From IMG/VR virus record IMGVR_UViG_2541047119_000008: 14,184 nt of DNA; one strand, written 5' to 3'. Positions 12,001-14,184 of the stretch are shown here, piece after piece; within the stretch, counting starts at the first letter, position 1; each line of letters starts with the position of its first letter. Position numbers: made by a program. Origin of the DNA: a virus. Lineage: Duplodnaviria; Heunggongvirae; Uroviricota; Caudoviricetes.

Positions 12001-14184
12001 TACCGGAAGAGAACGGGATACCGGAGCGAACGGACGAAGAACTGATGCATCTTGGGGAAGGTATTTCCGGAGGTGTGCGTTATGGACCAGATAGCCAACC
12101 TGGTCATTGATTTGGGGATTGATGCGGCAGAGTTTAAAAATGAAATTCCCCGTATCAAAAACCTTCTGAATGGTGCAGCCAGCGATGCAGAACGGTCTTC
12201 TGCCCGTATGCAGCGTTTTATGGAGCGTCAGACTCAGGCCGCCCGGCAGACAATGCAGGCGGCTTCTTCGGCTGCAACAGCCGCATCCGTCCATGCGCAG
12301 ACGGTGGAGAAGAGCGCACAGGCTCATGAACGCATGGCCCGCGAGGTGGAGCAAACCCGCCAGCGTATGGAGGCACTGAGCCAGAAAATGCGCGAGGAAC
12401 AGGCGCAGGCCATGGCTCTGGCGGAGGCTCAGGATAAAGCGGCTGCTGCGTTTTATCGTCAGATTGACAGTGTGAAACAGGCCGGTGCGGGGCTGCAGGA
12501 ATTACAGCGTATTCAGCAACAGATCCGACAGGCCAGAAACAGTGGCGGGATTGGTCAGCAGGATTATCTGGCGCTGATTTCTGAGGTTACGGCGAAAACC
12601 CGTGTTCTTACACAGGCTGAGGAAGAGGCTACCCGACAGAAAGTGGCGTTTATCCGTCAGCTTAAAGAGCAGGCAACCCGCCAGAATCTTTCTTCTTCTG
12701 AGTTGCTTCGTGCTAAGGCTGCCCAGCTGGGGGTAAGCAGTGCTGCAGAAGTGTATATCCGCAAAATGGAGCAGGCAGGAAAAGCCACGCATTCGCTGGG
12801 TCTGAAAAGTGCAGCAGCCCGTCAGGAGATAGGCGTTCTGATAGGTGAACTGGCCCGCGGCAATTTAGGTGCGCTGAGGGGATCCGGAATAACGCTGGCT
12901 AACCGTGCCGGGTGGATAGACACACTGATGTCACCGAAAGGCATGATGCCAGGAGCGGTTATTGGCGGTATTGCCGCGGCTGTCTATGGTCTGGGTAAAG
13001 CCTGGTATGACGGTCAGAAGGAGGGGGAAGAATTTAACCGCCAGCTGTCGCTGACGGGGCATTATGCCGGAGTCACTGCCGGGCAGCTGTGGACGCTCAG
13101 TCGTGCTATTTCCGGGAATGGTATCACGCAACATGCTGCAGCCGGTGCGCTGGCTCAGGTGGTGGGGAGTGGTGCATTTCGTGGAAACGATATCGGTATG
13201 GTGGCGAGAGCTGCCGCACAGATGGAGCGATCGGTTGGCCAGTCGGTCAGCGATACCATAAATCAGTTTAAGCGGCTGAAGGATGATCCTGTAAATGCCG
13301 CGAAGGCTCTGGACAATGAGCTGCATTTTCTTACTGCCACTCAGCTTGAGCAGATACGCGTCCTTGGGGAGCAGGGGCGGTCCAGTGATGCTGCACGGAT
13401 AGCCATGTCTGCACTGGCAGAGGAAACCGGTCGGCGTACTGCGGATATTGATAATAACCTCAATGCGCTTGGCAGTACGCTGAAGTATCTGTCTGATTTG
13501 TGGAGTCGTTTCTGGGATGCGGCCATGAATATTGGTCGTGAAGACTCGCTGGATGAACAGATTGCCGCTTTACAGGAGAAAGTGTCGCGGGCGAAAAGAC
13601 TCCCCTGGACGGCATCATCTTCTCAGGTTGAATACGATCAGCAGCGTCTTAACGATCTTCAGGAGAAAAAACGCCAGAAGGATTTGCAGGATGCAAAAGA
13701 GCAGGCAGAGCGGAATTATCAGGAGCAACAGAAACGCCGTAATGCTGAAAATGCTGCACTGAACCGGATTGAACCGCCCCGGGTTTCCTGGAGAGTGTTT
13801 TATCTGTGAACTCAGGCTGCCAGATCATCGTTTCCGATGGAAGCATAATAAGCTTTTTCTGCTTCTGCCGGAGGAGTATGGCCCAGCCTTCCCAGCAATC
13901 GTCGATTGTTATACCAGTCCACCCACGTTAGTGTGGCCAGTTCCACTTCTGCACGGTTTTTCCAGCTCTTACGGTGTATTACCTCCGCTTTGTAAAGACC
14001 ATTGATGCTCTCAGCCATCGCGTTGTCATACGAGTCGCCTGTACTCCCTGTTGATGCCAGTAATCCGGCTTCTTTTAGTCGCTCCGTATAGGCCAGTGAC
14101 ACATACTGAGAGCCTTTATCGCTGTGATGGATGGTGCCAGACGGACGACGTGCCCACAACGCCTGCTCCAGCGCATCCAGCACG

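Follow-up and report, generated by a model that had tools for sequence, protein, structure and literature searches.

This stretch of prophage DNA ends in a tape measure gene, H, that runs into an insertion sequence, and the locus raises the question of whether the element interrupts H in the bacterial genome and, if it does, whether the interruption is what disabled the prophage. The window, by which we mean the whole 14,184-nucleotide stretch analysed, is draft contig AVRI01000028.1 of Escherichia coli 08BKT055439 (GCA_000462305.2) in its full length, and it ends within the IS; short-read assemblers commonly break inside repeated IS elements, and this explains the contig end. An initial annotation had read the locus as an IS629-like element of the IS3 family that cuts H, leaves the prophage tail-defective, and is polar on the downstream tail genes. 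The features bearing on these proposals are listed in Table 1. The start of G was converted from gene calls on the contig, and G and T are likewise annotated in relatives.

Table 1. Coordinates of the features discussed, in window positions.
Feature	Position	Strand	Remarks
Portal gene, frameshifted	5424..6933	+	One additional T (+1) within a run of T residues, ~6443-6449
Tail assembly chaperone genes G and T, intact	11386..12110	+	Directly upstream of H; Pfam Phage_TAC_2 and Phage_tail_T
H, 5' part	12082..13769	+	1688 nt: 562 complete codons and the first 2 nt of codon 563; Sp3-type
Truncated fusion ORF, 575 aa	12082..13809	+	562 H residues, junction-codon Ile, 12 residues read from IS629 (EPPRVSWRVFYL), stop
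GAT, predicted 3-bp target-site duplication, left copy	13767..13769	.	Inferred from the junction and from other IS629 copies
IS629/IS1203, right-end 415 nt	13770..14184	-	Complete element 1310 bp; cut by the contig end
IS629 right terminal inverted repeat, 25 bp	13770..13794	-	Aligned to AP000400.1 'inverted repeat from right end of IS629'
IS629 orfB, 3' part	13812..14183	-	Last 123 codons and stop; C-terminal part of the DDE integrase-core domain

IS629 interrupts the tape measure gene H

The 5' part of H was compared with the intact 3066-nt (1021-codon) H of O157:H7 strain TR01, whose protein is identical to Sakai ECs_0837. No mismatches are present in the 1688 nt, and identity ends at 13769. 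From the next base onwards the window matches the annotated IS629 of VT1-Sakai (AP000400.1) at 414 of 415 positions, including an identical right inverted repeat, and it matches the IS1203 copies in CP038416 and CP032811 equally well (414/415). At the break the intact gene reads ...CTGAACCGGAT followed by GAATGAAACGG, whereas the window reads ...CTGAACCGGAT followed by TGAACCGCCCCGGG (in short form, CCGGAT/GAATGAAACGG against CCGGAT/TGAACCGCCCCGGGTTTCC). The IS sequence opens at the first base of the annotated right-end inverted repeat (13770), and this terminal repeat starts with 5'-TG and equals the right end of IS629, which is the only end that the window contains. Alignment to an intact relative and to IS629/IS1203 references, as the initial annotation had suggested, thus gives a clean switch from H to IS at 13769/13770, and its coordinates, IS terminus, minus-strand OrfB and read-through peptide all agree with these sequence comparisons.

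The only sequence that H and IS629 have in common here is the 7-mer TGAACCG, located at 13760..13766 in H and at 13770..13776 in the IS, and the join lies outside both copies; after its TGAACCG, H continues for three bases (GAT) and is then followed by the outermost base of the IS. The junction falls exactly on that outermost base and is therefore a signature of transposition, not of repeat-driven misassembly. We confirmed that H is broken after codon 562 by IS629/IS1203, which lies in the orientation opposite to that of the late operon.

Assignment of the element to IS3/IS629 is also seen at the protein level. The minus-strand reading frame is identical to the C-terminus of BAB19550.1, that is, to the last 123 residues of OrfB, and matches the Pfam DDE transposase families rve (5e-10), rve_3 (4e-12) and rve_2. 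The NCBIfam IS3 transposase model scores 128 bits over its positions 261-369 of 369, to be read against a full-length cut-off of 160, OrfB being a fragment here. RefSeq labels the near-identical (414/415) copies 'IS3-like element IS1203 family transposase' (e.g. WP_171877072.1); those in CP038416 and CP032811 are annotated with a 'programmed frameshift' and an AL1L pseudoknot, in a region that lies outside the window. The transposase is encoded on the strand (-) opposite to the late operon (+). At 14151 the window has T where the VT1-Sakai, 3-5-1 and ERL03-1416 copies have G, a synonymous difference that leaves the OrfB residues unchanged.

Interruption takes the H frame out of its own sequence at codon 563 of 1021, and a stop follows 13 codons further on, inside the IS. 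The H-containing open reading frame (12052/12082..13809, plus strand) ends in ...AALNRIEPPRVSWRVFYL, also given as ...NAENAALNRIEPPRVSWRVFYL, and the 575-aa fusion protein is in GenBank as ERC70393.1. There remain 562 native H codons (55%), and 459 C-terminal codons (45%) are gone from the frame, not the 'two-thirds' of H that the initial annotation expected to lie beyond the window. Pfam TMP_2 is found in the frame with an E value of 2e-49 and 168 bits against a cut-off of 30, and the gene sits directly after the G and T chaperone genes, as is typical of gpH-like members of this family; a complete frame with the conserved C-terminal region is absent. Judged by its sequence, the window H is a gene remnant and not a functional TMP_2 family member.

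It had also been proposed that H matches lambda gpH to about codon 562. The count of native codons stands, but the similarity to lambda is remote: intact Sp3 H (1021 aa) and lambda gpH (853 aa) are homologous at their N- and C-termini, with 26-33% identity in patches only. Lambda gpH is like the window H in belonging to TMP_2 and in its position after G and T. Both ends of lambda gpH are required in tail assembly, and the 459 C-terminal residues absent here include the part most similar to the lambda gpH C-terminus. Because lambda gpH needs its ends for tail assembly, the 575-aa product should be non-functional, and we predict that it could not support tail assembly.

A prophage with earlier lesions

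The interrupted gene belongs to Sp3, a prophage described in the Sakai strain as lambda-like and located there between ybhC and ybhB (the bio region); the contig itself carries no chromosomal flank. Positions 2013..13773 are 99.898% identical to Sakai Sp3 over 11,765 aligned positions, and the window shares with it not only this near-identity of the morphogenesis region but also a lineage-specific frameshift in the portal gene. A tblastn search with the intact 502-aa portal protein splits between frames 3 and 1 at residue 343, the additional T is common to the window and Sakai Sp3, and other O157 genomes annotate two 'portal' CDSs. In Sakai Sp3 the integrase, bet and portal (ECs_0827) genes are pseudogenes, and the Q gene is kept. 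Asadulghani et al. (2009, PMC2669165) scored the repressor, antirepressor and replication functions of Sp3 as missing and its integration, recombination and portal as defective, and in their experiments Sp3 showed no circularisation, replication or packaging. Since Sp3 was already dead, by the portal frameshift and by these data, the IS is not what disables the prophage; the insertion is a further lesion in a fixed, already dead remnant and not the disabling event. Without heads and without excision, truncation of H would therefore have no phenotype for Sp3 itself. The prediction of a tail-defective prophage holds insofar as H keeps only 55% of its codons, but in a trivial sense, the prophage having been defective already. 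A plausible cost, and the only one, is that one intact H fewer may be available for recombination with, or complementation of, other lambdoid prophages, a theme of PMC2669165.

Sp3-like sequence does not extend to the left end of the contig, which counts against the account preferred below. Positions 1..2145, which encode lysozyme, Rz and a KilA-N protein, follow the lysis module of the Stx2c-type prophage of strain 10671 (at 2.65 Mb, on the opposite strand), and the remainder of the contig is Sp3 (at 0.9 Mb). About 104 identical bases are common to both, and they define a crossover interval of 2042..2145. Positions 739..2012 have no counterpart in Sp3, and the terminase genes are not preceded by a lysis module of the Sp3 type. 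The join across 2042..2145 was not found at high identity in complete E. coli genomes, and only FDAARGOS_943 comes near, at 90.5%. This left join may be genuine, arising from recombination between the two prophages and then implying a large inversion; otherwise it is a chimera of the short-read assembly. Between Rz and the terminase genes, 1262..1759 encodes a protein with KilA-N and ORF11CD3 domains that is absent from this position in Sakai Sp3. The frames at 128..625 and 1262..1759, both of 165 aa, were considered as duplicate lysozyme genes and are unrelated, the second being this KilA-N/ORF11CD3 protein.

We also considered whether the inverted IS should silence the genes downstream of H. 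In an O157 phage carrying IS629 within stx2, the downstream lysis, head and tail genes are still functional (PMC7430833). On the antisense strand of the IS, the path that the late transcript would take, terminator-like sites do not exceed the number expected by chance. Lambdoid late operons are transcribed by Q-antiterminated polymerase. On these grounds, together with the retained Q gene of Sp3, strong polarity of the predicted late transcript through the IS is not expected, and the polar effect on downstream tail genes that had been anticipated finds no support.

How the H–IS junction arose

The reading that we favour, and regard as very probable, is that IS629 transposed into H of the cryptic prophage Sp3 in 08BKT055439, an event of neutral decay that also supplies a lineage marker. 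IS629 (IS1203), which is abundant in E. coli O157:H7, would have inserted after nt 1688 of the 3066-nt H gene, its transposase frame running against the late operon. As in the IS3 family generally, insertion would proceed by copy-out/paste-in through a circular intermediate, catalysed by the OrfAB DDE transposase, and would leave behind a 3-bp duplication, predicted to be GAT. A simple insertion of this kind predicts that the other junction reads ...GGGGCGGTTCA-GAT-GAATGAAACGG (also written ...GGATTTCCGGGGCGGTTCA-GAT-GAATGAAACGGAAGC). No effect on phage production would be expected, as Sp3 was already unable to excise, to replicate or to make heads.

When the post-insertion locus is rebuilt, the first H-frame start after the IS is Met563, whether the duplication is of 3 or 4 bp. 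The predicted 459-aa and 441-aa H fragments were looked up in a protein collection, and the exact 459-aa fragment starting at Met563 was found on 10 Logan contigs, the longest of 7277 nt. All of these are Logan assemblies; in this look-up the fragment was in no NCBI record, including the NCBI assembly of 08BKT055439. None of the ten is tied to 08BKT055439, and they speak only circumstantially for a resumption of H at this codon in some isolates. They suggest that several isolates share the contig break, and these isolates probably share the IS allele at codon 563. The length of the 7.3-kb contig would fit the rest of H together with downstream tail genes.

A less simple history is that the IS marks a rearrangement. 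After insertion, or through exchange with a second member of the set of ~20 IS629 copies, or through a neighbouring deletion to which the IS-excision enhancer may have contributed, its other end would have come to abut unrelated DNA. The 3' portion of H would in that case have been lost or relocated, and tail and effector genes downstream might have gone with it. The window contains the right IS end only and neither a second GAT nor the 3' 1378 nt of H, and the NCBI assembly of 08BKT055439 has no record of the 459-aa C-terminal fragment. Nor are target duplications a constant companion of this element. Among 43 distinct complete IS629 copies in the IMG/VR loci (L010-L129), 24 have a 3-bp duplication, one has a 4-bp duplication and 18 have none, and a published survey found duplications at just 21 of 47 IS629 sites (PMC3271280). 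The high share of copies without duplications points to frequent IS-associated rearrangement. One further genome, 27_141091, which has the nt-1446 allele described below, matched 73% of an 885-nt query, and its DNA beyond the IS may or may not differ. Against rearrangement, both other inspected H alleles are simple insertions with 3-bp duplications after which H resumes, and the fragment found in the Logan assemblies begins at exactly Met563. Deletion or rearrangement is thus unlikely, although we leave it about a quarter of the probability because a target duplication is missing from some 42% of IS629 copies.

Two other explanations of the locus are far less probable. That H and the IS are not neighbours in the genome, and were brought together by a chimeric assembly, would be in keeping with the suspicious two-prophage join elsewhere on the same contig, across the 104-bp shared stretch, for which no complete genome has a high-identity counterpart. 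Repeat-mediated joins, however, fall within common sequence; here the two partners share a 7-mer only and are joined outside it, H gives way to the IS at the first base of the terminal repeat, and independent genomes carry the same type of event in H, so that we regard a chimera as scarcely conceivable. An only slightly better case can be made that the IS deprived an otherwise competent prophage of its tail and, by polarity, silenced the tail genes downstream. H is indeed cut at 55% of its length, and with a lysis module and KilA-N gene from a Stx2c-type phage at the left end, a recombinant with a different early region can be imagined. But the portal frameshift typical of dead Sp3 lies in the window and already contradicts this reading as regards head assembly, the late region is 99.9% identical to a prophage that does not excise, replicate or package, and neither the terminator signal of the IS, which is at chance level, nor the non-polar stx2 insertion (PMC7430833) argues for polar loss; this explanation is hardly credible. 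We therefore retain neutral insertion of IS629 into a dead Sp3 as the preferred account.

Other IS629 insertions in the Sp3 late operon and known relatives

The late operon of Sp3 has been hit by IS629 at other positions. A 1310-bp IS1203 is present after H nt 1446 in five genomes (the ERL03-1416 group), with the target duplication ATG, and after H nt 2372 in three to four genomes (the 3-5-1 / 272 / 08-3918 group), with the duplication GAG; in both groups H resumes beyond the element. RefSeq annotates H of these groups as two partial pseudogenes flanking the IS. In a further group (F8492 and others) the operon carries IS1203 within its Nu1-like DUF1441 gene. All four late-operon insertions (in the Nu1-like gene and after H nt 1446, 1688 and 2372) are antisense. 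The other hit Sp3 late-operon loci are L130 (4904..6708), L002 (6229..7538) and L001 (7155..8464).

The junction of H nt 1688 with IS629 was sought without success in 5,426 complete E. coli genomes, in the phage collection and in 120 IMG/VR IS629 loci, and no Sp3-type H adjoining IS629 was found in the IMG/VR loci. A literature search on the strain name 08BKT055439 returned nothing relevant. The sequence comparisons indicate that the nt-1688 junction is a strain- or lineage-specific allele. IS629 site polymorphisms serve in strain typing, and the right-end junction at H nt 1688 could mark 08BKT055439 and its relatives in IS-based typing.

Repeated hits in one operon raise the possibility that IS629 locally and repeatably prefers it as a target. 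Within H (L003), the heptamer TGAACCG, which forms the extreme 7 nt of IS629 at either end, has just two occurrences (nt 1679 and nt 2375), and two of the three H insertions sit 2-3 nt from these copies. This would resemble IS911, for which insertion at sequences similar to its own ends has been described, and a preference for the Sp3 late operon (at least four separate hits, all antisense, with two of three H hits near TGAACCG) would, if true, contradict a published view in which sequence-based target choice was not found (PMC3271280). We consider such a preference very improbable. As a general rule, end-like targeting fails: TGAACC lies no more than 25 nt from the right end in one of 116 distinct flanks, and no more than 18 nt from one or the other end in one of the 43 complete copies, both at the level of chance. 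Proximity to TGAACCG in H is probably a coincidence. Orientation is likewise without bias relative to the interrupted gene among clean insertions in IMG/VR, with eight sense and eight antisense. Neither pattern extends to IS629 at large, in line with PMC3271280. Four or five of the 43 complete copies measure 1303-1309 bp instead of 1310 bp.

The finding is an ordinary one, of routine prophage decay, and adds one more IS629 hit among the defective prophages of O157:H7. In O157, 62% of IS629 copies have been found in prophages, with target duplications of 3-4 bp (PMC3271280). The case also shows why draft contigs stop inside IS elements, and that truncated genes at contig ends should not be over-read.

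Set beside known systems, the element, the gene and the host prophage are all familiar, and the position of the allele is the only new item. Of the IS629 represented by AP000400.1 and WP_171877072.1 the window has the right third only, and the synonymous change at 14151 is the sole difference. The gene order of the window matches that of Sp3 of Sakai (CP-933K of EDL933), with the Nu1-like gene, terminase, portal, protease/capsid fusion, tail genes, G, T and H in succession, but H of Sakai Sp3 is intact, unlike that of the window. The alleles of the ERL03-1416 and 3-5-1 groups have the same prophage, the same gene, the same IS and the same antisense orientation as the allele described here, and differ from it in the point of insertion.
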